Under the pieces are notes generated by a model that made no database searches, was not told where the DNA came from, and saw only the letters and a list, made by a program, of their open reading frames with translations. From positions 1,579-65,578 of the forward strand of contig DATDUW010000022.1 of assembly GCA_035290185.1 (NCBI GenBank): DNA of 64,000 bases. Direction: 5' to 3'. This document shows positions 18,752-56,258 of the stretch, piece after piece (the stretch's first letter is position 1; every line of letters begins with the position of its first letter). Source of the stretch: Patescibacteria group bacterium (GTDB taxonomy: Bacteria > Patescibacteriota > Patescibacteriia > UBA9934 > GWF2-40-263). Made by a program: the position numbers and the translations under genes.

Positions 18752-19234
18752 ATGCGCAAGGATTTTCAGAAAGGTTTCACCCTTATCGAACTGCTTATCG
18801 TAATCGCCATCATCGCGATTTTGGCGGCTGTTGTATTTGTCGTTCTTAATCCGACTCAACGTTTCTCGCAGGCTCGCAATGCACGCCGCCAAAGCGATGT
18901 GGAAAATATTGTTGCGGCCCTCAAAATTTCTCAAGTGGACAATAATGGCAGTTATCCATCAGCAGTTTCAACACTAACGAACGGGAAATTTTATGAAATA
19001 GGGACAGCTACGACTGGTTGTGATGCTGGTTGTACAACAAAGACCACGGAAGGGTCCTGTGTGGACTTGACTGCTGGGTTGGTGACAGGCGGGTATCTTG
19101 GAAGCATTCCCATGGAACCGACCAGCGGGACAGCTTCCAAAACCTTATATTACCTCTCAAAAAATGCCACAGGAACAATTGAAGTCGGGGCTTGTACCCC
19201 AGAATTAAGTACCGCTATTTCCGTTATTCGATAA
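18752..19234 (+). CDS. Type IVa major pilin
   Basis: N-terminus MRKDFQKGFTLIELLIVIAIIAILAAV is a canonical class III signal. C-terminal Cys pair forms a disulfide loop. Confidence 0.9.
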   Translation: MRKDFQKGFTLIELLIVIAIIAILAAVVFVVLNPTQRFSQARNARRQSDVENIVAALKISQVDNNGSYPSAVSTLTNGKFYEIGTATTGCDAGCTTKTTEGSCVDLTAGLVTGGYLGSIPMEPTSGTASKTLYYLSKNATGTIEVGACTPELSTAISVIR

Positions 19235-19675: not shown

Positions 19676-19870
19676 ATGTTCTGGATTGCAGTCGTTGGCT
19701 GGGTTTTTTTTACGATTCCTCTCCTGGCTTTTTTCGTCTTCAGCCTATGGATGATCAGCGAGGCGAGGAAGGATGATGATCAAATTGGCTCATTCATCGG
19801 CCTCCTCTTTTTGATTTGGGTGATTGGAATTGTTCTCCTTGCGGTTTCCTATCTTTCAAAGATGTTGTAA
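19676..19870 (+). CDS. 64-aa two-TM small membrane protein (copy 2)
   Basis: About 85% amino-acid identity to the 1295-1489 product, with long identical DNA stretches (tggatgatcagcgaggcga.gaaggatgatgatcaaattggc; cttgcggtttcctatctttca). Confidence 0.6.
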   Translation: MFWIAVVGWVFFTIPLLAFFVFSLWMISEARKDDDQIGSFIGLLFLIWVIGIVLLAVSYLSKML

Positions 19871-20160: not shown

Positions 20161-20180
20161 ACGTCTTTCAAAAACAAAAA

Positions 20181-20212
20181 TCCCCCAGGTTTCCCTGGGG
20201 GATTTTTTTCTT
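20181..20212. terminator. Bidirectional Rho-independent terminator
   Basis: TCCCCCAGG-ttt-CCTGGGGGA hairpin flanked by an A-run on the 5' side and a T-run on the 3' side. Confidence 0.7.
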
Positions 20213-20392
20213 TTAGGGTCGTGCATTGCGTGACTTGTTGCATGGGTAGCAATAAATCATGCCGTAGGTGCCGTCCTGTTTAACCGTTGGGACGAAAGGC
20301 AACTTGTCGATCTTTGCCCCGCACTGGGTACAGGTAATGTTAAGATCCGTTACGTCGTTCAACTGGCGGGCCGGTCGTGAAGCATCGTTCAT
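20213..20392 (-). CDS. 59-aa zinc-ribbon protein
   Basis: Minus-strand ATG ORF MNDASRPARQLNDVTDLNITCTQCGAKIDKLPFVPTVKQDGTYGMIYCYPCNKSRNARP with C-x2-C...C-x2-C, ending at the bidirectional terminator. The frame stays open upstream, so the start is uncertain. Confidence 0.4.
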   Translation of the reverse strand: MNDASRPARQLNDVTDLNITCTQCGAKIDKLPFVPTVKQDGTYGMIYCYPCNKSRNARP

Positions 20393-20679
20393 AATCGCTG
20401 GCGATAGGGTTAAAGGCTCATTATCGCGGTTCGACGAACGACCTTTCGGGATTCCGCCTACTCGGATAATCTTTTTAAAGAGTATCCTTTTTTGGCCGGT
20501 CTGTCAAGGGGCGATCCTTGTGTTCCGCTGTTGATTTTCTGTCCACACCGCTTGGAAAACGGGGAAATTGTTCGTTTTTTGTCGGTTGAATTTTCCTCAA
20601 AATTTGATAGAGTATCTTTGTAGGTGACCCTCTCCCCATCCGAAAGAAACTCCCTGTTTTATTCTTTTCAGAAAAACGT

Positions 20680-21042
20680 ATGACAGACGTTTCTTCCGAG
20701 CCAACGAACGGGGATATCCTCGAAGCCATCAATGCTTTTGCTGACGCGACAGAACAGAGGTTTGAAGGTATAGAAACACGCCTCGCGCGTGTTGAATCTA
20801 CGATGACAACGAAAGAAGATTTGAAGCAGTGCGCAACCAAGGAAGATCTTCGAAAAACCGAACACAATCTTCGAGATTATACCGATCGTCGGTTTGAGGA
20901 TTTCCAGGTCAATGTCATTGGTTTGGTTCGCAAAGAGGATGCTCAGGTGACGACTCTGGTTGATGTTTTGAAACACCGGAAGGTCCTCACACCATCGGAC
21001 GCCCAGCGGGTGCTTTCCACGCGGCCATTAGTTTCCTCTTGA
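20680..21042 (+). CDS. Hypothetical coiled-coil protein
   Basis: 120-aa ORF with a TTGAAT-N17-TAGAGT promoter-like sequence about 90 nt upstream and a terminator hairpin downstream. Confidence 0.5.
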   Translation: MTDVSSEPTNGDILEAINAFADATEQRFEGIETRLARVESTMTTKEDLKQCATKEDLRKTEHNLRDYTDRRFEDFQVNVIGLVRKEDAQVTTLVDVLKHRKVLTPSDAQRVLSTRPLVSS

Positions 21043-21057
21043 CCTTTTTTAACCGAA

Positions 21058-21090
21058 AACAGCCTTTTCAAGCAAAAGGGCTGTTTTTTT
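21058..21090 (+). terminator. Rho-independent terminator
   Basis: CAGCCTTTT-caagc-AAAAGGGCTG hairpin plus TTTTTTT. Confidence 0.65.
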
Positions 21091-21101
21091 GTCCCAGCCT
21101 C

Positions 21102-21130
21102 TTGACATATTTTTGTAGAAATGCTACTCT
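21102..21130 (+). promoter_or_regulatory. Sigma70-like promoter candidate (TTGACA-N17-TACTCT)
   Basis: Perfect -35 hexamer, 17-nt spacer and a weak -10, placed at the 5' edge of the GC-rich island. Confidence 0.4.
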
Positions 21131-21150
21131 GCTCCCTTGTTCCTTAAAAC

Positions 21151-21251
21151 CGCACTGAAGCCGATGCGAGGCGATTACGTCTCTCCCCCTTCCCAAGGGG
21201 GAGATGAAGAGGGGGTTGCCTTCGTCTAGTCCTCTCGCATCGGTTTCAGTG
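21151..21251 (+). ncRNA. GC-rich structured 5' leader / candidate cis-regulatory RNA
   Basis: Outer stem of ~19 bp (CACTGAAGCCGATGCGAGG / CCTCTCGCATCGGTTTCAGTG, one G-U pair, one bulge) encloses a CTCTCCCCC / GGGGGAGA inner hairpin. It lies between the promoter candidate and the RBS of the 21373 gene. Confidence 0.35.
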
Positions 21252-21372
21252 TTAGGATAGATTGAAAAAAAGAGGGGTCGACAGAGAATAGTTTCTGTTG
21301 ACCAAAGGATAGGGCAGGTGGCCAGGGGGGAGTCTCCCTGCCACGAATTCTCAGACAAAGGAGAAAAGATCC

Positions 21373-22431
21373 ATGAAGATGTTGTTGACCTTGGCAGGAA
21401 AGTCCTTTGAAAAGCCCGACATGGGGCCGAACAACACCCTCGCAGAGTTCCAGGTTTCGGCAGTTGGGAATGGAGAGTTGATCTTTGTCGAGGATAAAGG
21501 GAAGAGGATTTTTGGGGCTGCCACAAAGAGGCCTCTTGTCCTCGGTGAATTCAGTGAGATCGACGGAATTGAGCCGTTCGAAATCAATCTCCAGAACGCA
21601 GGCACCTTCCAGATCATCCTCGACACAGCCAACCGGAACCTCTGGAAGGTCAAGTTGGAGGAGGTTTCGCCGGAGGAGCTCGAGGATCGGAAAAACGCCA
21701 AGACCGGGAAATCCCTCCTCAAGGGTTTCGGGGGAAGCTTCCCGATCTCGGGCGAGGTCACGGCACACCAGAAGGATGGCGACGTATACCAGATCGCGCT
21801 GCCCACCTGGGCACTGCCGGTGGCCGTCATCGGTCTCCTGCTCCTCGGCGGAATCCTCGTCTCTCAGGTCTTCGGGACCGATAACGGCGTCGTCGGGGCG
21901 ATCACCGCCAGCACCAATGTGATCCACGGGGATCTCACACTGGAAGACAGCAGCGGCGGCCGGGTCAAGACCATGGCCGGGATGATGGAGGAGATCCGGC
22001 TGTCGACGTCCTCCACCGCGACCAACACTGGCAGCGCAGCCAGTGCCGCGTCTGAGACAGCGACAGCGGTCGCTGAACTCAAGGGAGCCCTTGGCAAGAA
22101 GGTCGCGCAGGAGCCGACCCTCGTTCTCATGGCTGCGGACGCCTGGAAGGCCCAGGATACGGACGGCGATGGGGTGACCAATCTTCTCGACGCCTGTCCC
22201 AAAGACCCGGCAAAGGGGCAGAGCCTCTACGCCGGGTGTCCGAATCCCGAGGCCCTCATCAAAGGGGCCAAGGCCGTGAAAAGGGCCAAGGCCGACGCGG
22301 AAGGGAACATGGTCTTGGTGCGTGGTCCGGCCACGTTCTTAGCCAAGGCTCTCCCCCCGGCCACGCCCGGCGGTAAGTCGCCTGGATTTGACCCGACGTC
22401 CGTCAAGGGCGTCGTGGTCAAGGCCCGCTGA
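21373..22431 (+). CDS. Membrane protein encoded in a GC-rich island (central TM, TSP3-like DTDGDG Ca-binding motif)
   Basis: Strong Shine-Dalgarno sequence AAGGAG 9 nt upstream. The 352-aa ORF spans the island. TM segment WALPVAVIGLLLLGGILVSQVF. DTDGDGVTNLLDACPKD motif. Bounded by a promoter upstream and a hairpin downstream. Confidence 0.55.
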   Translation: MKMLLTLAGKSFEKPDMGPNNTLAEFQVSAVGNGELIFVEDKGKRIFGAATKRPLVLGEFSEIDGIEPFEINLQNAGTFQIILDTANRNLWKVKLEEVSPEELEDRKNAKTGKSLLKGFGGSFPISGEVTAHQKDGDVYQIALPTWALPVAVIGLLLLGGILVSQVFGTDNGVVGAITASTNVIHGDLTLEDSSGGRVKTMAGMMEEIRLSTSSTATNTGSAASAASETATAVAELKGALGKKVAQEPTLVLMAADAWKAQDTDGDGVTNLLDACPKDPAKGQSLYAGCPNPEALIKGAKAVKRAKADAEGNMVLVRGPATFLAKALPPATPGGKSPGFDPTSVKGVVVKAR

Positions 22432-22544
22432 CCCCCCCGGCCACACAAACACCTCCCCCCCCTGGTACCCGGCGCAATGGGAGGATCACCCGCGTTTCTG
22501 CTGCCAGGAGTAGGACGCAAAATCTCGCGCACCTGATGCGTGAG

Positions 22545-22620
22545 ACGAAAAGTGCCCCGACAGATTCCTGTCGCGGAAGCCATTCGTCTCTCTGTCGGGT
22601 GCGCTTTTCGTTTTGCAAAG
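22545..22620 (+). terminator. Long imperfect inverted repeat plus T-run (possible terminator or structured element)
   Basis: ACGAAAAGTGCCCCGACAG ... CTGTCGGGTGCGCTTTTCGT then TTTTG. The ~28-nt loop is atypical for an intrinsic terminator. Confidence 0.4.
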
Positions 22621-22677
22621 CTGATTGTTTTTTTTTCAAAATTTGGTAGGATCATTTTGTTCACTTCTTAAAAATGT

Positions 22678-22965
22678 ATGAAAGAAGATCAAATTTTTTT
22701 TGAAATAAAAAAACGCCTGGGAGAGATTTTACCGAAAAGCCATTGTGGATTTTTATTCGGTTCTTTTGCAAAAGGGACGGCCATGAGGGGTTCTGATGTT
22801 GATATTGCCATTGAAGGTCCGTCTCCTCTCCCTTTTGAAATCTATCTTCGCTTGAAACAGGCCCTTGAAGATATTCCGACCTTGCGAAAAATCGATCTGG
22901 TGGATTTGCAGAACGTCAGCAGCCGTTTTCGCGAAGAAGTTTTGACTTATGCAACCTCTTTATGA
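22678..22965 (+). CDS. Minimal nucleotidyltransferase (MNT) antitoxin-like protein
   Basis: GS-x9-13-DxD Pol-beta NTase signature (GSFAKGTAMRGSDVDIAI); 95 aa. Confidence 0.75.
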   Translation: MKEDQIFFEIKKRLGEILPKSHCGFLFGSFAKGTAMRGSDVDIAIEGPSPLPFEIYLRLKQALEDIPTLRKIDLVDLQNVSSRFREEVLTYATSL

Positions 22966-23330
22966 AGCATCCTCTTTTTCAATCGTACAAAGAAGCCTTG
23001 AACCGTCTCAAAGAGGCACTGGGTCGGGAAAAAGATGATCTGATTCGCGATGCGGCCATCCAACGGTTTGAATTTACGGTTGAACTGGCATGGAAATCGA
23101 TGCAGAAGCGTTTGCAGGAAGAACAGATTTTGTGTCGGTCTCCAAAAGAATGTTTACGGGAGGCTTTTGCTTTCGGACTCATTGAGGATGATCCCGGATG
23201 GATTCGGGCTATGGAGGACAGAAATCTTACCTCTCATACGTACGATCAAAAAATAGCAGAAGAAATTTTTGTCCGTTTGTCAGAATATATCAGGCTGTTC
23301 GACGAACTTGAAAAAAAATTGGAGTCATAG
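22962..23330 (+). CDS. HEPN-domain protein (NTase substrate-binding, HI0074-like) toxin partner
   Basis: R-x4-HxY HEPN motif (RNLTSHTY). Overlaps the MNT gene stop (ATGA), the classic MNT-HEPN operon arrangement. Confidence 0.75.
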   Translation: MKHPLFQSYKEALNRLKEALGREKDDLIRDAAIQRFEFTVELAWKSMQKRLQEEQILCRSPKECLREAFAFGLIEDDPGWIRAMEDRNLTSHTYDQKIAEEIFVRLSEYIRLFDELEKKLES

Positions 23331-25045
23331 TGGACGAAAATGAATCTATGTCCCAAGCGCTCTATCGAACCTATCGTCCCCAAACGTTTGCAGACCTGAC
23401 GGGTCAGGAGCATGTGAAACGAACGCTCCAGAACCAGCTCAAAATCGGGCGGGTGGCCCATGCCTATCTTTTTACTGGTCCGCGCGGAGTAGGGAAGACC
23501 ACAGCCGCTCGGCTGCTTGCCAAGGCCGTGAATTGTCAGGGGATTACGGAAGGGAAAGATAGCCTTCCAGAACCCTGTAATGTCTGTTCAAGCTGTCAGG
23601 AAATCACGGGCGGGTCATCGCTGGACGTCTATGAGATCGATGCGGCTTCTAATACCGGCGTGGATCATGTACGCGAGCACATTATTGAGAGTGTCCGTTT
23701 TTCTCCGAATAAGGCGAAGATGAAGGTGTTCATTATCGATGAGGTCCACATGCTTTCGACCTCGGCTTTTAATGCGCTGTTAAAGACGCTTGAGGAACCT
23801 CCGGCTCACGCCCTGTTCATCTTAGCAACAACGGAAATTCACAAGGTCCCAGCCACGATCATCAGTCGTTGTCAGCGGTTTGATTTTCATCGTATTCCCT
23901 TTCAGGAAATGACCGATCGACTCAAGGCGATCTGTGCGGCCGAGGGAGTGACCATTGAGGATGGCGTCTTGCGCGAGCTTGCGCGACAATCCGAGGGGTG
24001 CGAGCGCGATGCGGAGAGTCTGCTCGGCCAACTCATGGCGCTCGGAGAAAAGACCATTGGAGCTGAACAGGCTTCTCTCGTGCTGCCCATTGCCCAAACA
24101 TCCTCTGTGGTGTCACTTCTGGAACTGCTTCCGGAGCACCGAACAGCGGATGCGGTTCGACTTTTAAACGACTATCTCGAGCAGGGAATGGATGTTGGCG
24201 CGTTTTTAGACGCGTCTGCCGAAGCTCTACGAACCGCTCTTTTGCTCAAGCTTGGGGGCATGGATTCTTTTCATCCTCCGTATGATCCAGAAACGGTTTT
24301 GCGACTTAATACCCTTGGACAAAAATGGAGTTCATCGATTTTAAGCCGAGCTATTGAAATGTTTTTGGAGGCCAAGCGGTCTAGTCGTTTGGATTCAATT
24401 CCGCAGGTGTCAGCCGAAATCGCTATTGTTCGGTTGTGCGAGGGAGATGGAGGAAATACGCCGCCGGTGGCAACCCCCCCCAGCCCCCCCTTGGGAAGGG
24501 GGGGAGACGTCGAGAAACCACCTTCAGCCTCCCTTGGGAAGGGGGGAACAACTCGTCCCCCATCCCCCTTTGTAAAGGAGGGGCCGGGCCTGTCCGACAT
24601 AATAGAGCAGAAGGGGGTGGTTGACGTACATCAGGGACATGGAGAAGTCGGGGCTATCTCTCCTTCTTCTGATTCTCCTCCGATCAAAGATGTGGCCCTT
24701 GGTGATATCCCCGTTCTTGATCTTCAAGACGTTATGCGCAAGTGGCCCCAGGTATTTGCCAAGGTGCAGGAATGTAATGCGTCCCTGCCGCTCATTCTCC
24801 AGAGCGGGGAGCTGGGAACCGTCGAAGGGAATACGGTGGAAATTCGTTTTGCTTATTCGTTGCATGCGGAGACGTTGAATCGCGCGAAGAATCGGGATTT
24901 AGTGGAAAAGATTCTTCAAGACGTGCTGGGTGCGTCCGTGCGTGTGCGGGCTGTTCACGATCCTGACGCATCCGAAACTCGAAAAACGTCCGCGGATGGG
25001 GCGGTAGCTGCGATTTTGCAGAATTTCGGGGGGCAGGTGATTTGA
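23330..25045 (+). CDS. dnaX: DNA polymerase III subunit gamma/tau
   Basis: AAA+ clamp-loader motifs (GPRGVGKTT, Zn module C-x-x-C...C-x-x-C, DEVHML, SRC motif IISRCQRF). Start is either GTG 23330 or ATG 23348. Pro/Gly-rich linker before the C-terminal domain. Confidence 0.9.
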   Translation: MDENESMSQALYRTYRPQTFADLTGQEHVKRTLQNQLKIGRVAHAYLFTGPRGVGKTTAARLLAKAVNCQGITEGKDSLPEPCNVCSSCQEITGGSSLDVYEIDAASNTGVDHVREHIIESVRFSPNKAKMKVFIIDEVHMLSTSAFNALLKTLEEPPAHALFILATTEIHKVPATIISRCQRFDFHRIPFQEMTDRLKAICAAEGVTIEDGVLRELARQSEGCERDAESLLGQLMALGEKTIGAEQASLVLPIAQTSSVVSLLELLPEHRTADAVRLLNDYLEQGMDVGAFLDASAEALRTALLLKLGGMDSFHPPYDPETVLRLNTLGQKWSSSILSRAIEMFLEAKRSSRLDSIPQVSAEIAIVRLCEGDGGNTPPVATPPSPPLGRGGDVEKPPSASLGKGGTTRPPSPFVKEGPGLSDIIEQKGVVDVHQGHGEVGAISPSSDSPPIKDVALGDIPVLDLQDVMRKWPQVFAKVQECNASLPLILQSGELGTVEGNTVEIRFAYSLHAETLNRAKNRDLVEKILQDVLGASVRVRAVHDPDASETRKTSADGAVAAILQNFGGQVI

Positions 25046-31528: not shown

Positions 31529-31575
31529 ATCCGCCCCCTCCCTGCCAATTCCACATTCATTCGTCTGCTCCCTCC

Positions 31576-31608
31576 GAGGCGGCCTTCACCGCCTCGTTTT
31601 CGTTTTCA
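31576..31608 (+). terminator. Rho-independent terminator
   Basis: GAGGCGG-ccttcac-CCGCCTC followed by GTTTTCGTTTTC. Confidence 0.7.
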
Positions 31609-31646
31609 GAGAAATGTGTCACGATGGCGATGATTTGGACTAGAAT

Positions 31647-31695
31647 AATTGTCATCCTGAGAAGCTTCCCATTTTCTGTGCGACGAAGGATCTCT
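31647..31695. repeat. REP-like intergenic element, copy 1 (core GTCATCCTGAG ... CGACGAAGGATCTCT)
   Basis: 49-nt sequence nearly identical at both ends to 36004-36050. Its 5' half also has an inverted partner at 31756-31778. Confidence 0.6.
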
Positions 31696-31777
31696 TTTTG
31701 TTCTGATTTCAGTTCATTTTCTTACAGAGGTTCTTCGGTCGCTACAAAAAACAAGCTTCCTCAGAATGACAATTTAT

Positions 31778-38342: not shown

Positions 38343-40322
38343 TTACCAATTTTGATCGATTTTTTCCGTCTGCCGCAGTACCGTTGATTTGTCGTAATTT
38401 CGGCTACTGTCAACGGAAGGGCCTAGACGGTAGTTGCCAAAGAACGCCTCCGGCAGGTCATCTACTTCGGCTGCCCAGGCAGGGCCATAGAGAGCCGCGG
38501 CGATTTCTTCATTCGCAATGGCGCGCAGGACTCCGCCGCGCGACACGGCATAGACCGTGGGGTCGCTTGGAAATTTCACTAATTTTTTTCCAGGACGATA
38601 GGTGACGTTGGGACCGAGCGGAAGGGAAGCCATGACCTCTTTAGAAACCGAAACGACTTTTTTGAAATCAGCAAACCACGTTTTAAAAATTCGTTCATTG
38701 GGAAAGGCATGGCGTTTTCCATCTGCACCGTAGTAATAGACGGCTTTGCACGGATCATCCGCAGTTGCGCCTGCTCCACACCCGATTTTAACCAGATCTG
38801 CAGGTCGAACGTCGCTGGAAACAGGTAAAATGGTTACAGGAGCATCAAGGCCGTCTACCCTGTTTCCTTCACTGTCCACACAAGAGGCATGAACGGGAAA
38901 TGTCCCGACGTTTGGGAAGGAGAAGGAGGTGCTGGCATATCCATTGGAAACGGTCATGGATTGTTTGCGGACGTCGTCTACATACAAGGTACAGTTAAGG
39001 ACGTCCTGGTCATCCCAAACTTCGGCTGAAAGGGTGATGGATGATCCAATAATCGCAGAAGTCGGGGAAATCAGACCTACGACGGGAAGGGCGGAGCCGG
39101 TAACGGTGAAGGACAGTTTTGTTTCGGATCCAGCATTGCCGCCAGCATCTATGGCACGGACGCCGACCACATGATCGCCGGGTTTGAGAGGTTCGTTCGG
39201 AATGAAAATAAGGCTTGATCCGGCGCTGCGATAAGAACCGTTGTCAAAGCGAACTTGATAAGAAGCAACGGACGTTTCGTCATCCGAGGCCTCGTCCCAC
39301 TGGATTGTTGGGGTCGGGTCATTCGTGACAGTCCCCTTATCGTCCAAACGAACATGGGATGGAGCTGAAGGCGGATGGGCATCATAACGAATAATTGTTC
39401 CTCCCTCGCCGGCCCCAAAACGCGTATCAGAACTTCGAAAGGAGAGGATCTGAAGGATGGAAGATCCCGGCAAGGACGATTGCAGCCATGTGGCACCGCT
39501 GTCTGTTGTCTCAAACAGAGTCCCGTCGCTCCCAGAAACCAGGCCGTTCCCAAAGGAGAGGAAAGCGAGGTCTGTTAAATCGGACGCTTTCCAGTCCAGG
39601 ATTCGGATGGATTTCCATGTTTTTCCGCCATCGGATGTTTTGAGAAGTGTACCGTCTGAAACTCCGGCCCAGCCTTCGCTTTGTGAAATCATTTGCAAGG
39701 ATGGAATATCCTGGGCCGTTCCGGAAGGAAGCATGCTCCACGTTGACCCCCCGTCCGCTGTTTTTAAAAGGATGCCGTTCGCTCCAGCAATCCATGCCGC
39801 GGACGTGTTGGATCCGGGGACGCTTACGTCCAAAAGGTCTGCACTTGTGCCGGATGGTTTTTGTTTCCACGTTTTACCGCCGTCTGTTGTTTTAAGGATG
39901 AGCCCACCTTCCCCGACCACAAAGCCGGTGGAGGAAGTAATCATACGAAGGTCGTAGAGATTTTTTTCCGTTCCCGTTTCGAGTCTCTGCCAGGTTGACC
40001 CCCCGTCGGTTGTTTTGATAAGTATCCCTTTTTGTCCAGCAGCCAGGACGGTTTTTGAATCAAGGAGGGAAACAGCAAAGAAGTCCCCCGAACCCGGTTC
40101 GCCAGAGGGTTTTTTCCAAGTTTTGCCTCCATCTGTTGTTTTGAGAACGGTCCCTTCCGCGCCAACGGCATAACCCGTTGAACTTCCGGAAAAACCGAAG
40201 TCATAGAGTGCTTTATTTGTTGGAGAAGAAACAGAAGCCCACCCGGCAGCTTCGGCAACAAAAGGGACAACGAAACAGAGAAAGAAGAGGACCGCAATAC
40301 TGGGAAGAAAACGTTGAGGCAT
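38343..40322 (-). CDS. Secreted BNR/Ycf48-like repeat protein with C-terminal Ig/FN3-like region
   Basis: Signal peptide, then at least six S/T-x-D-G-G-x-T-W BNR repeats (TTDGGKTWK and variants), then a beta-rich region. Confidence 0.8.
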   Translation of the reverse strand: MPQRFLPSIAVLFFLCFVVPFVAEAAGWASVSSPTNKALYDFGFSGSSTGYAVGAEGTVLKTTDGGKTWKKPSGEPGSGDFFAVSLLDSKTVLAAGQKGILIKTTDGGSTWQRLETGTEKNLYDLRMITSSTGFVVGEGGLILKTTDGGKTWKQKPSGTSADLLDVSVPGSNTSAAWIAGANGILLKTADGGSTWSMLPSGTAQDIPSLQMISQSEGWAGVSDGTLLKTSDGGKTWKSIRILDWKASDLTDLAFLSFGNGLVSGSDGTLFETTDSGATWLQSSLPGSSILQILSFRSSDTRFGAGEGGTIIRYDAHPPSAPSHVRLDDKGTVTNDPTPTIQWDEASDDETSVASYQVRFDNGSYRSAGSSLIFIPNEPLKPGDHVVGVRAIDAGGNAGSETKLSFTVTGSALPVVGLISPTSAIIGSSITLSAEVWDDQDVLNCTLYVDDVRKQSMTVSNGYASTSFSFPNVGTFPVHASCVDSEGNRVDGLDAPVTILPVSSDVRPADLVKIGCGAGATADDPCKAVYYYGADGKRHAFPNERIFKTWFADFKKVVSVSKEVMASLPLGPNVTYRPGKKLVKFPSDPTVYAVSRGGVLRAIANEEIAAALYGPAWAAEVDDLPEAFFGNYRLGPSVDSSRNYDKSTVLRQTEKIDQNW

Positions 40323-40972: not shown

Positions 40973-41191
40973 GAGGAGCGAAAGCACCTGGTCCGCCCAA
41001 AATCGGTCGGTTTCTTTTTGATCCTCGGGGAGTTCTTCATACGTTTTCCATTGTTTCCACCATCGTTCCAAGATTTCCCTAGGGAGGGAACATTCCTGTG
41101 CCAGCGCCCGGCTCCAGGTCAGCCATTGTTCATGCTCGAGTGCAGCAAGGCGCTCGCGGAGTTCAAAAAGGTCCTTTGCATTTTTTTTCAT
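40952..41191 (-). CDS. Hypothetical Trp-rich small protein
   Basis: 79-aa ORF convergent with, and overlapping by 21 nt, the 40406 gene. Trp-rich pattern (EHEQWLTWSR...RWWKQWKTY). Confidence 0.3.
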   Translation of the reverse strand: MKKNAKDLFELRERLAALEHEQWLTWSRALAQECSLPREILERWWKQWKTYEELPEDQKETDRFWADQVLSLLSKSSSL

Positions 41192-41320
41192 AGATTGGTA
41201 GAACTTTCTCCTTTGGATGCAGAACGAGGAGAAATCGAGGCTTTTTGTGAGCTGTACTTGTTGGTACAGCGAATCAAAAAACGGAGATTTCGACGAAGTT
41301 ATGCGCCAAAGGAGAAAGTT

Positions 41321-54444: not shown

Positions 54445-54482
54445 TTTGATGAAAAGAAAAAATAGAATTGTGATTGTGGCCT

Positions 54483-56222
54483 ATGTCCCAAACGCCGAAC
54501 TACGACACTAAAGTGAAAGTGATTCTCGACGCCACGATTCCCGGCGAGCGGACATGCGAACTCACGGGAGAGAAGTGGAACATGACCGACGAGGAAATCG
54601 GTTGGTATCGCAAGTTCAACGTGCCGCCGTCGCGACGGAGCCCATTGACCCGCTGGTGGACCTTAACGGGCTTTTGGTTGGCCTATCAGTGGTGGTGGAA
54701 CAAACACGCGGAAACCGGCAAACCCATCTTTACTTACGTCCATCCGGCAACCGGACTAAAAGTTCTTCCGGATAAGGAATGGTTTGAGAAGGATTTTTCT
54801 TCCACGAATCGGCATTACGACGCGAACCGGTCTTTTTTCCAGCAACTTCGGGAAATTCAACTTCAAATTCCCCTCCAAGCTTCCCAGAACACCAAAGAAC
54901 CGGAACAGAGCATCTCCCTTTTTTCCTTCGGCGACGTAAACAGCTATTTCGTAACGTTCTGTCGGTCGCGCGACACGTTCTATTCCATTTGGGGACTGGA
55001 CGTCGAAGATTCCGCTGAAATTTGGAATTCGAGCTCAATCTCCCGCTGCTATCACGTTTTTGATTCGCACCGGATGCATTTCTGTCAGTTCGCGCAGGCT
55101 TGTTTGGACTGTTCAAATAGCGCATTCCTATTTGATTGCAGGAATTGCGAATACTGCTTTGGGGCCGCGAACAAGCGCAATCGCAAGTATCTTTGGTTCA
55201 ATGAACAGCTTTCAAAAGAAGAATGGGAGGCCAGAAGAAAGGAAGTGGATTTTGGAAAGCGGTCGGTTTTGGAGAAATGGAAGAAGGCGTTTGAAGGCCT
55301 GATGAAAACCCACGCCGTCTGGCCGGAAAATTTTAATGAAAAGGCCCAGGAGAGCGTGGGGGAATATCTCACGAACGTGCATCGGATCCGATTCGGCTAC
55401 GCGTGCATGCATGGGCCTCACGATTGCTATCAGGTGATCGGTTGCAACGGAGATACGTATGATTGCGCCATCGGCGGATGTTTTGATTCCAACAATTGCT
55501 ATTACACCACCAATGCCACTTCCTGCTCTTTCATTCGGTTTTCTTATAACTGCTCCCGTTCCCTGGATCTGGAATACTGCCTTTACTGCTACGATTGCGA
55601 ATCGTGCTTCGGATGCGTTGGAATACGGCGGAAGAAATTCCATATTTTCAATAAGCCGTACGGGGAAGAAGAGTACTGGCGGAAAGTAGACGAGCTGAAA
55701 TCTTCTATGCTCGAACGCGGGGAGTACGGGGAATTCTTTCCCCTTTCCATGTCCCCAAGCTGCTTTGAGGCGTCCGGAGCTACCATGTACGTTGGCGCCC
55801 CTAGAGAGATCGGGCAAGAAAAATTGGGAGCCATGGATTTTGATTCGGATGAAGAGGGAGCGTTCGGCGAAGAGATCCGTCGTGCCGAACCAAAAACCAT
55901 TGAAGAGATTCCAGATTCTGTTGATGATCTGGCGGCGGAGACGTGGGCCAACGTTCCAATCTATGATCCCGAGCTGCGCAGGCGTTTCGTCTATCTCAGA
56001 CCGGAGATTGAATTCTATCATCGTCACCGGATCGGTCCTCCGCGCCGTCATTTCATTCTCCGGACGCAAGAGCTGCATCTTGCCTCCAACAGCGGGCGGT
56101 TTGAACAAACGACGTGCGGAAACTGCGGAAAAGGACTGCTGACGGCGACGAATCTTACTTATTCGGATCGGAACGTCTTCTGTCGGGAATGCTATCTCAA
56201 TTATCTCGAACGGTGTGGTTAG
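54483..56222 (+). CDS. Cys-rich ~580-aa protein, paralog A of a tandem family
   Basis: Conserved N-terminal module (TPNYDTKVKVILDATIPGERTCELTGEKWNMTDEEIGWYRKFNVPPS), two internal C-x2-C-x2-C-F-G-C ... F-N-x-x-Y-x-EEEYW repeats, and C-terminal zinc ribbon (CGNCGKG...FCRECY). Confidence 0.8.
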   Translation: MSQTPNYDTKVKVILDATIPGERTCELTGEKWNMTDEEIGWYRKFNVPPSRRSPLTRWWTLTGFWLAYQWWWNKHAETGKPIFTYVHPATGLKVLPDKEWFEKDFSSTNRHYDANRSFFQQLREIQLQIPLQASQNTKEPEQSISLFSFGDVNSYFVTFCRSRDTFYSIWGLDVEDSAEIWNSSSISRCYHVFDSHRMHFCQFAQACLDCSNSAFLFDCRNCEYCFGAANKRNRKYLWFNEQLSKEEWEARRKEVDFGKRSVLEKWKKAFEGLMKTHAVWPENFNEKAQESVGEYLTNVHRIRFGYACMHGPHDCYQVIGCNGDTYDCAIGGCFDSNNCYYTTNATSCSFIRFSYNCSRSLDLEYCLYCYDCESCFGCVGIRRKKFHIFNKPYGEEEYWRKVDELKSSMLERGEYGEFFPLSMSPSCFEASGATMYVGAPREIGQEKLGAMDFDSDEEGAFGEEIRRAEPKTIEEIPDSVDDLAAETWANVPIYDPELRRRFVYLRPEIEFYHRHRIGPPRRHFILRTQELHLASNSGRFEQTTCGNCGKGLLTATNLTYSDRNVFCRECYLNYLERCG

Positions 56223-56230
56223 AAAACCAA

Positions 56231-56258
56231 AAACCCCGTTTACACGGGGTTTGGTTGT
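56231..56258 (+). terminator. Hairpin with short T-tract after paralog A
   Basis: AAACCCCGT-ttaca-CGGGGTTT followed by GGTTGTCT. Weak U-tract. Confidence 0.45.

Follow-up and report, generated by a model that had tools for sequence, protein, structure and literature searches.

A compositionally atypical orphan gene, probably acquired by horizontal transfer, behind a host-like promoter and a strongly folded leader in a patescibacterial genome

Aquifer Patescibacteria commonly carry single genes and islands gained by transfer (PMC12455944). Here, we analyzed a GC-rich islet formed by one orphan open reading frame (ORF) of 352 amino acids and its 3' flank, located in a 64,000-nucleotide stretch of contig DATDUW010000022.1 (assembly GCA_035290185.1; positions 1,579 to 65,578 of the forward strand). 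This stretch is referred to as the window, and positions are given in its own coordinates. The islet resembles those of aquifer Patescibacteria in host group and habitat, and also in being a small atypical block with a hypothetical membrane-associated gene that adjoins a toxin-antitoxin pair. It differs from them in that neither a donor nor any mobility genes, tRNAs or flanking repeats were identified, and in that GC content and GC content at third codon positions (GC3) alone are atypical, whereas the dinucleotide signature is not.

Further described systems bear on individual parts of this locus. Bacterial thrombospondin type 3 (TSP3) repeat proteins (PF02412), including the OmpA-family protein of PDB entry 5wtl, share with the ORF product the calcium/cysteine pattern DTDGDG...D.CP....G......GCP, and multi-TSP3 surface proteins are its best matches. 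Here, however, one unit scoring below the Pfam cutoff takes the place of a tandem array, an OmpA or beta-barrel domain is lacking, and the unit is joined to a predicted inner-membrane helix and an unrelated N-terminal domain. The 5' leader of the gene is long, very stable and sense-biased in its folding, and its Shine-Dalgarno sequence is predicted to be partly occluded, which recalls stabilizers in 5' untranslated regions (UTRs), RNA thermometers (ROSE, fourU) and riboswitches. Unlike these, it matched no Rfam family, and the predicted partner of the Shine-Dalgarno sequence lies in the coding region, not in the leader; unlike in RNA thermometers, the modeled pairing does not respond to temperature. 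Repetitive extragenic palindromic (REP) sequences located within genes were reported preferentially in replication and repair genes, and a CGTC-tagged superfamily was described (Di Nocera et al., PMC3733652). The inner hairpin of the leader, and only this part of it, is likewise a short GC-rich stem-loop occurring in multiple copies, with CGTC in front of two copies in the window. Similarly to REPs and Rickettsia palindromic elements (RPEs), it is found as in-frame insertions in replication genes, namely, dnaX in the window and DnaE-like genes elsewhere. However, stems of 8 to 9 bp and loops of 4 to 5 nt in the CGTC families compare with 10 bp and 3 nt here, and the tag is missing from most cross-phylum copies of the motif.

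The compositional islet comprises the ORF and approximately 170 nt downstream of it. In bins of 100 nt, GC content ranged from 58 to 69% at 21601-22600, compared to 40 to 52% at 20601-21600 (46 to 52% at 21101-21600) and 27 to 45% at 22601-23000. The 1-kb segment with the highest GC content of the entire 64 kb (0.64) starts at 21601 and lies beyond all values elsewhere (mean 0.479, standard deviation 0.043, maximum 0.574; z ~3.2). High GC content continues in the untranslated 3' region (0.63 at 22432-22610). Promoter and leader are not part of the islet. Intergenic region 21043-21372, whose 330 nt hold an upstream terminator, the promoter and the leader, has a GC content of 0.48, and the putatively transcribed leader (21138-21372) one of 0.52, both within the range of intergenic regions in the window (0.27 to 0.55). 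An earlier reading of this DNA from its letters alone (the sequence-only reading) had delimited a GC-rich island at 21100-22660 that included a structured, GC-rich leader. Such an island does exist, but it is shorter than proposed, and the leader, although strongly folded, is GC-rich in its stems only. Overall, we lean slightly toward interpreting the islet as an imported orphan gene which, together with its GC-rich 3' flank, came under the control of a host-type promoter and leader.

The ORF is a genuine protein-coding gene, or was one until very recently. Its GC3 of 0.78 exceeds that of the 51 other ORFs of at least 100 amino acids in the window (mean 0.48, standard deviation 0.08, maximum 0.66) by 3.6 standard deviations and stays between 0.58 and 0.86 across all 50-codon windows. 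Codon periodicity sets in at the start codon and fades past the stop codon. The spread of GC content among the codon phases amounts to 0.32, compared to 0.044±0.023 in 5000 shuffled sequences (z 12), and this period-3 signal establishes coding ancestry of the ORF. Open antisense frames are expected in a gene of high GC3, and GC3>GC1>GC2 is the order typical of GC-rich genes. The long ORFs in other frames did not show the same periodicity pattern, and none of the six such ORFs in the islet matched a Pfam family.

Long ORFs in several frames, the lack of homologs and a structure model of low confidence might nonetheless be taken as signs of a spurious ORF, in which case the stretch would be GC-rich DNA without coding function, a large structured RNA or a product of chimeric assembly. 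This explanation is largely refuted, and we rate it as highly improbable. The period-3 signal coincides exactly with a single frame, in which the GC contents of the codon positions follow the order seen in GC-rich genes, TSP3-type matches reach E values down to 1e-9, a strong Shine-Dalgarno sequence stands at proper spacing, and no Rfam family was matched. Furthermore, the left junction of the islet is spanned by six independent contigs and both junctions by three, and identical junctions were found in contigs from several samples and assemblers; hence, the islet is not an assembly chimera. The 120-amino-acid gene directly upstream (20680-21042) is carried by 13 contigs, drawn from groundwater-type metagenomes and a single GenBank metagenome-assembled genome (MAG), all of which match the window exactly wherever they overlap it, apart from runs of N and two single-nucleotide polymorphisms (SNPs). 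Both SNPs (20960 and 22454) belong to the ORF-carrying scaffold L002 and lie outside the ORF. Apparent strain variants among these contigs, a gene call of 319 amino acids and a split MNT gene, turned out to be gaps of N in scaffolds. The sequence-only reading had equated a lack of homologs with non-coding GC-rich DNA. Homologs are indeed lacking, yet the equation is invalid in view of the period-3 signal.

The GC3 of the ORF and the composition of its 3' flank are most simply explained by horizontal acquisition, to which we assign a likelihood slightly above one half. While genes of the host prefer CTT/GTT, AAA and GAA, the ORF prefers CTC/GTC/GCC/ACC, AAG and GAG, that is, G-ending as well as C-ending codons. 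The untranslated flank supports import because its GC richness cannot be explained by codon selection. The setting among orphan genes and next to a toxin-antitoxin pair also speaks in favor of it, as does the commonness of such transfers in aquifer Patescibacteria (PMC12455944). In this scenario, the ORF would have evolved under a GC-rich mutational regime and would most likely have been imported from a donor with a GC content of approximately 60 to 65%, accompanied by some 170 nt of its original 3' flank, in which the terminator-like hairpin lies. It is now situated behind the host-type promoter TTGACA-N17-TACTCT and a 5' leader of 235 nt with host composition.

A number of results weigh against this overall interpretation. 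Neither a donor nor a homolog was found anywhere searched, which leaves composition as the evidence of transfer. The islet had no match in phage and plasmid collections (blastn) and no relative in IMG/VR. The GC-normalized dinucleotide difference delta* of 119 is no outlier relative to 75±28 for 1.2-kb windows (z 1.6), although such short windows make for a weak test, and an index analogous to the codon adaptation index is only mildly lower than that of the window genes (0.711 versus 0.751±0.022; z -1.9). The window contains no tRNA, the genes called within approximately 8 kb encode no integrase or transposase domain, and convincing direct repeats at the borders were not found, the sole bordering repeat being a 12-nt T-run. 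No strain lacking the ORF was present among the contigs compared, and relatives at ~55% DnaX identity do not have conserved synteny. Long nested hairpins were also detected in other intergenic regions, and a leader of this kind is thus not necessarily peculiar to the ORF. Finally, AlphaFold2 run on the single protein sequence returned a mean confidence (pLDDT) of 33 and no usable secondary structure. Inverted-repeat pairs between leader and 3' UTR (73 to 75% over 20 to 22 nt), considered as candidate transposon ends, were at chance level for the region.

Alternatively, the gene might encode a native, lineage-specific and fast-evolving surface protein and owe its high GC3 to local mutational or selective bias. 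The inconspicuous dinucleotide signature and only mildly lowered codon index would agree with this, as would the host-like promoter and leader and the lack of mobility genes nearby. In addition, the neighboring 120-amino-acid gene is an orphan too, so the stretch appears rich in lineage-specific genes. We nevertheless regard a native origin as unlikely, if worth keeping in mind. The GC3 of the ORF surpasses the maximum of all other ORFs in the window, the GC richness of the untranslated flank is not accounted for by codon selection, and preference for AAG and GAG alongside C-ending codons is as expected under the mutational GC bias of another genome. The sequence-only reading proposed a self-contained, horizontally acquired foreign cassette, which is half correct. 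ORF and 3' flank are indeed atypical, and the deviation in sliding-window GC content reached the window maximum; codon adaptation deviated only mildly. The unit is not self-contained in this sense because promoter and leader are host-like in composition, the promoter hexamers recur in a neighbor, and the core hairpin is shared with dnaX.

The 352-amino-acid protein contains one hydrophobic segment, IALPTWALPVAVIGLLLLGGILVSQVFG, with a Kyte-Doolittle mean of up to 2.29 over 19 residues, and no N-terminal signal peptide was recognized by eye. The inferred layout would place the N-terminal 140 amino acids, apparently beta-rich as judged by eye, in the cytoplasm and, beyond a single transmembrane helix, the C-terminal 184 amino acids outside. 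In the latter part, DTDGDGVTNLLDACPKDPAKGQSLYAGCP fits the pattern DxDxDGxxDxxD plus CP...GCP, with Asn at one Asp position, and includes the only two cysteines of the protein (275 and 289). The Pfam TSP_3 model (PF02412) matched residues 261-281 with E=1.2e-4 and 22.1 bits, under its gathering cutoff of 25, and the unit aligns to the TSP3 arrays of P0003, P0004 and other proteins; only one matching stretch, and no tandem array, was found in the 352-amino-acid protein. These features bear out the sequence-only description of a central-transmembrane protein with a TSP3-like DTDGDG motif. They suggest a putative single-pass membrane protein with a calcium-binding, disulfide-containing TSP3-like unit, which might serve as a surface-exposed anchor or in an adhesin-like capacity.

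Homology beyond this unit was not detected. In a word-indexed search of 5.8 billion clusters, the protein matched only itself. An exhaustive phmmer search of 1.84 billion representative proteins gave 28 matches at E<=1e-3 and no full-length homolog; 26 of the 28 align only at residues ~258-300, to proteins with TSP3 arrays, and the other two are the protein itself and P0002. The P0002 match (E=5e-11) was dismissed as spurious, being an alignment of 68 residues at 29% identity multiplied by 14 identical repeats. NCBIfam, PHROGs and PADLOC returned nothing for the ORF except sub-threshold matches in the TSP3 region, and the sole match in a PDB sequence search was an OmpA-family TSP3 protein (E=0.19). 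Nearest relatives, and with them their GC contents, which the sequence-only reading had suggested as a check on foreign origin, were not found beyond the TSP3 motif.

The promoter-like sequence TTGACA-N17-TACTCT noted in the sequence-only reading was confirmed (21102-21130). The window has three matches to TTGACA-N17-TANNNT, compared to 0.36 expected, and a second TTGACA-N17-TACTCT is found at 20479-20507 on the minus strand, approximately 85 nt upstream of a 59-amino-acid ORF (20216-20395, minus strand). The sequence therefore appears to represent a promoter type native to the host. A consensus promoter scanner passed over this site and listed TTGAAA-16-GAGAAT at 21262-21289 inside the leader, a second promoter-like site from which transcription may start instead. 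To the left, the transcription unit is bounded by the intrinsic terminator of the upstream gene. The 59-amino-acid ORF itself is uncalled and, as read by eye, zinc-ribbon-like (CxxC...CxxC). Between it and a 37-amino-acid ORF on the plus strand lies a hairpin with 29-nt arms and a C5..G5 core (20161-20222), which looks like a bidirectional terminator.

Among 14 long intergenic regions of the window, the leader is the most structured, with -0.43 kcal/mol per nt and z values of -6 to -7. Its predicted minimum free energy is -114.7 kcal/mol on the plus strand (z -7.0) and -91 kcal/mol on the minus strand (z -3.8), the difference stemming from G-U pairs. The fold consists of hairpins H1 to H3, and the outer stem of H1 (21152-21171/21233-21252) encloses UCUCCCCCUU-CCC-AAGGGGGAGA at 21182-21204. 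This agrees with the outer stem around a C5/G5 inner hairpin proposed by the sequence-only reading, except that the stem has 20 bp, not 19. The strong Shine-Dalgarno sequence predicted there was found as well. When the first 48 coding nucleotides were included, the model paired its core with UCCUUUG inside the ORF (21404-21410; probability of being unpaired <=0.18 at 37°C), and this modeled pairing did not open at any temperature from 20 to 45°C. As read from the sequence, a further CAAAGGA (21302-21308) could compete for the same partner. The heptamer AGGATAG is present twice in the leader and is not enriched in the window.

Such a fold raises the possibility that translation of the ORF is controlled by the leader as a novel cis-regulatory RNA; a riboswitch or thermosensor had been suggested by the sequence-only reading. 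No other intergenic fold in the window is as stable, it forms better on the sense strand, the Shine-Dalgarno sequence is predicted to be largely paired, and CAAAGGA offers a possible competitor. Nevertheless, we consider this very unlikely. No Rfam family was matched at its gathering score across the whole window, and the matches within 20900-22800 had E values of 0.2 to 10, far below family thresholds and not meaningful. None of the three hairpins is followed by a U-run, and so there is no attenuator, terminator or antiterminator inside the leader, and the modeled Shine-Dalgarno pairing stays closed from 20 to 45°C. All available copies of the leader are identical, and no diverged homolog was present in the collections searched, so that covariation offers no evidence. 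Comparable hairpins occur in unrelated intergenic regions, and H1 is built around a dispersed palindrome. Nested hairpins of 100 to 200 nt were also seen in intergenic regions 31529-31765 (z -5.5), 40973-41320 and 56223-56480 (z -4 to -5.5), and long hairpins seem to be a general trait of the intergenic DNA of this genome. Sensing of a ligand or of temperature by the leader is unlikely; it is more conservative to assume that the leader stabilizes the 5' end, serves as a processing site or damps translation. Most likely, H1 to H3 would act as stabilizers or processing sites at the 5' end of the mRNA, with the 20-bp stem of H1 as a plausible RNase III substrate. Together with the pairing of the Shine-Dalgarno sequence to the coding region, they may also damp translation.

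The inner hairpin of H1 is a copy of a REP-like motif which also colonized dnaX. In inverted orientation, 25 nt of H1 (21177-21201) are 96% identical to dnaX 24486-24510, and dnaX 24531-24545 matches another 15 nt. In the variable linker of dnaX, two palindromic units found by search have the form C6-7 TTGGGAA G6-7, the first of them containing the 25-nt match, and the third unit, read by eye, is the more degenerate variant TTTGTAAA. The 21-base core TCNCCCCCTTCCCAAGGGGGNGA was found at 37 loci (L080-L116) in 596 Gb of species-representative genomes, compared to approximately 0.3 expected by an estimate from this collection size. Among its hosts are a Singulisphaera MAG with eight copies (8 contigs) that have conserved flanks, Methylomirabilota, Dehalococcoidia, filamentous cyanobacteria and one Uhrbacteria MAG. 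The core was also seen in viral contigs (L006-L023). Among 39 distinct sites, 19 have a C-run on the 5' side and 22 a G-run on the 3' side, compared to 3 of 39 with runs on the wrong sides; the leader copy has the 3' G-run only. CGTC precedes the stem in the leader (21178-21181) and in the dnaX copy, and it is absent from most cross-phylum copies. In-frame copies were detected in an ORF of approximately 1200 amino acids (...NYRFEP[VPPLSSPPSQGGEGKGGV]IRYGLGGIKG), judged DnaE-like, and in a cyanobacterial ORF (...PATTANLGPGFD...), judged homoserine-kinase-like. The former type was seen on contigs L090, L114 and L082, and the latter on L080, L097 and L112; both labels were given by eye from characteristic motifs, not from a family search. 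String searches of the literature for the motif or its peptides returned nothing relevant.

In its behavior, the motif resembles REP and RPE elements. Membership in the CGTC family is not established because the tag is mostly absent across phyla and the stem and loop sizes differ. H1 as a whole may then be essentially selfish DNA, a REP/RPE-like element, possibly nested in an older hairpin, that inserted between genes and has no specific regulatory role. The matches to dnaX, the excess of the core over expectation, the C- and G-runs on the proper sides, the in-frame copies and the documented occurrence of intragenic REPs in replication genes (PMC3733652) make this reading a real, if tentative, possibility. 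The outer stem of H1 does not fit in with it, since it has no other copy in the window, and its 18-mer gave 48 single matches in JGI metagenomes, which are at chance level and show no extended similarity. It is tempting to speculate that the C5-TTCCCAA-G5 hairpin belongs to a cross-phylum family of very small palindromes whose in-frame insertions target loops in housekeeping genes such as dnaX and the DnaE-like and homoserine-kinase-like ORFs, and that the leader copy, nested in the 20-bp stem, was co-opted into a new 5'-UTR control element. In an episymbiotic bacterium of the candidate phyla radiation (CPR), this element would tune the expression of an orphan surface protein that was imported only recently. 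We consider this combination quite unlikely.

The GC-rich 3' untranslated region (fold z -4.3) ends in a hairpin at 22545-22611, whose 20 bp form two runs of 11 and 9 bp (ACGAAAAGUGC/GCGCUUUUCGU and CCCGACAGA/UCUGUCGGG). Its 3' arm (GCGCUUUUCGU) is U-rich and followed by UUUGC. A consensus terminator scanner, for which the loop of more than 8 nt is too long, did not call it, and we classify the hairpin as apparently terminator-like rather than canonical. The long imperfect palindrome and T-run reported by the sequence-only reading are thus both there, with 16 nt between them. From the upstream intrinsic terminator (21055-21090) to this hairpin with its U-rich stretch, the locus is a single-gene unit. 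An integron-type gene cassette with an attC-like site could likewise appear as one ORF of foreign composition with a long imperfect palindrome behind it. We rejected this extremely improbable alternative: RYYYAAC and GTTRRRY core sites are missing from 22400-22700 and 21040-21380, there is no integrase within approximately 8 kb, and a promoter-like site and long leader of its own set the ORF apart from typical cassettes. The features of the locus are listed in Table 1.

Table 1. Features of the orphan gene locus and of related elements in the window
Feature	Position	Strand	Remarks
Intrinsic terminator of upstream 120-amino-acid gene (14-bp hairpin and T-run 21084-21090)	21055-21090	+	Fold of 21043-21100
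Promoter-like TTGACA-N17-TACTCT	21102-21130	+	Same hexamers as 20479-20507 (minus strand)
Leader hairpin H1, predicted three-way junction	21150-21256	+	20-bp outer stem, 5-bp extension, two inner hairpins
REP-like palindromic motif in H1: CGTC, UCUCCCCCUU-CCC-AAGGGGGAGA, then G-run (GAAGAGGGGGTT)	21178-21218	+	Stem 10 bp, loop 3 nt; near-copies in dnaX and many phyla
Leader hairpin H2, predicted	21276-21303	+	12 bp, 4-nt loop
Leader hairpin H3, predicted	21318-21344	+	5+6 bp
Shine-Dalgarno sequence AAAGGAG	21357-21363	+	9 nt before ATG at 21373
352-amino-acid orphan ORF	21373-22431	+	GC1/2/3 = 0.60/0.46/0.78; no homologs
Putative transmembrane segment IALPTWALPVAVIGLLLLGGILVSQVFG	21793-21876	+	Residues 141-168
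Single TSP3-like unit DTDGDGVTNLLDACPKDPAKGQSLYAGCP	22153-22245	+	Residues 261-291
GC-rich 3' untranslated region	22432-22611	+	0.63 GC, no codon periodicity; four hairpins
Run of nine T	22628-22636	+	16 nt past last hairpin; right edge of unit
MNT/HEPN toxin-antitoxin pair	MNT 22678-22965; HEPN-type NTase_sub_bind 22962-23330	+	Overlapping ATGA
Three palindromic units in variable linker of dnaX	24474-24583	+	Encode PPLGRGG, SLGKGG, PPSPFVKEG

On its 5' side, the islet is separated by several small orphan genes from a type IV pilus cluster comprising a T2SSF (PilC-type) protein, PilM, a prepilin peptidase and a pilin (18752-19234). The last of the genes upstream, the 120-amino-acid gene, encodes an apparently coiled-coil protein which hit itself alone among 5.8 billion clusters and is therefore an orphan. 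On the 3' side follow an MNT/HEPN pair and dnaX. The toxin-antitoxin pair was located directly downstream by the sequence-only reading, and both Pfam families indeed score above threshold, with PF18765 (E=1.4e-14) and PF01909 in the MNT protein and PF08780 (E=1.1e-36) in the HEPN-type protein. Like MNT/HEPN pairs of the HI0073/HI0074 type, it combines both families, overlapping genes and the motifs GSX10DXD (here GS-X10-DVD) and RX4H (here RNLTSH). Nothing ties the pair functionally to the GC-rich gene, and it is regarded here as context.

DnaX (23330-25045) is 100% identical to an NCBI protein of a MAG labeled Patescibacteria group bacterium, and its next-best relatives have 54 to 57% identity, several of them labeled Candidatus Uhrbacteria. 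The host is a groundwater member of the Patescibacteria (CPR) with Candidatus Uhrbacteria as nearest named relatives. In the Uhrbacteria-like contigs L003 and L005, at approximately 55% DnaX identity, the genes upstream of dnaX are a TraG/VirD4-like DUF8128 gene and one of 215 amino acids, and the arrangement of pilus cluster, islet and MNT/HEPN pair is lacking. Gene order in front of dnaX has thus been rearranged from lineage to lineage. By DnaX, no close genome was found in the GTDB set, where relatives at 54 to 57% identity have other neighbors, and since the closest relatives differ in synteny, no comparison with an empty site is possible.

Elsewhere in the window, a direct repeat of 183 nt with 84% identity (1295-1477 and 19676-19858) represents two copies of a small membrane ORF of 64 amino acids, which bracket the entire type IV pilus cluster. 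GC3 is approximately 0.36 to 0.48 in the left part of the window and approximately 0.5 to 0.6 in the right part. At 54474-64000, there are five tandem paralogous ORFs of approximately 580 amino acids, with 60 to 80% DNA identity between repeat segments. An ORF of 659 amino acids (38343-40322, minus strand) contains six repeats with a period of approximately 126 nt (42 amino acids) at 39483-40157 and possibly encodes a beta-propeller or other repeat protein.

The islet is real, it was for the most part well described by the sequence-only reading, and it is ordinary in kind for these bacteria. As the 352-amino-acid protein defines no family beyond itself, it offers little leverage for now. The more reusable lead is the GC-rich palindrome common to the leader and dnaX, which recurs across phyla in conserved genes and could be studied as a REP/RPE-like element of unusually broad distribution. 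If the import holds true, the locus would be a further case of a streamlined CPR bacterium acquiring a foreign surface-protein gene and wiring it in. Such a case, expected from existing surveys, would bear on the diversification of the cell envelope in episymbionts.

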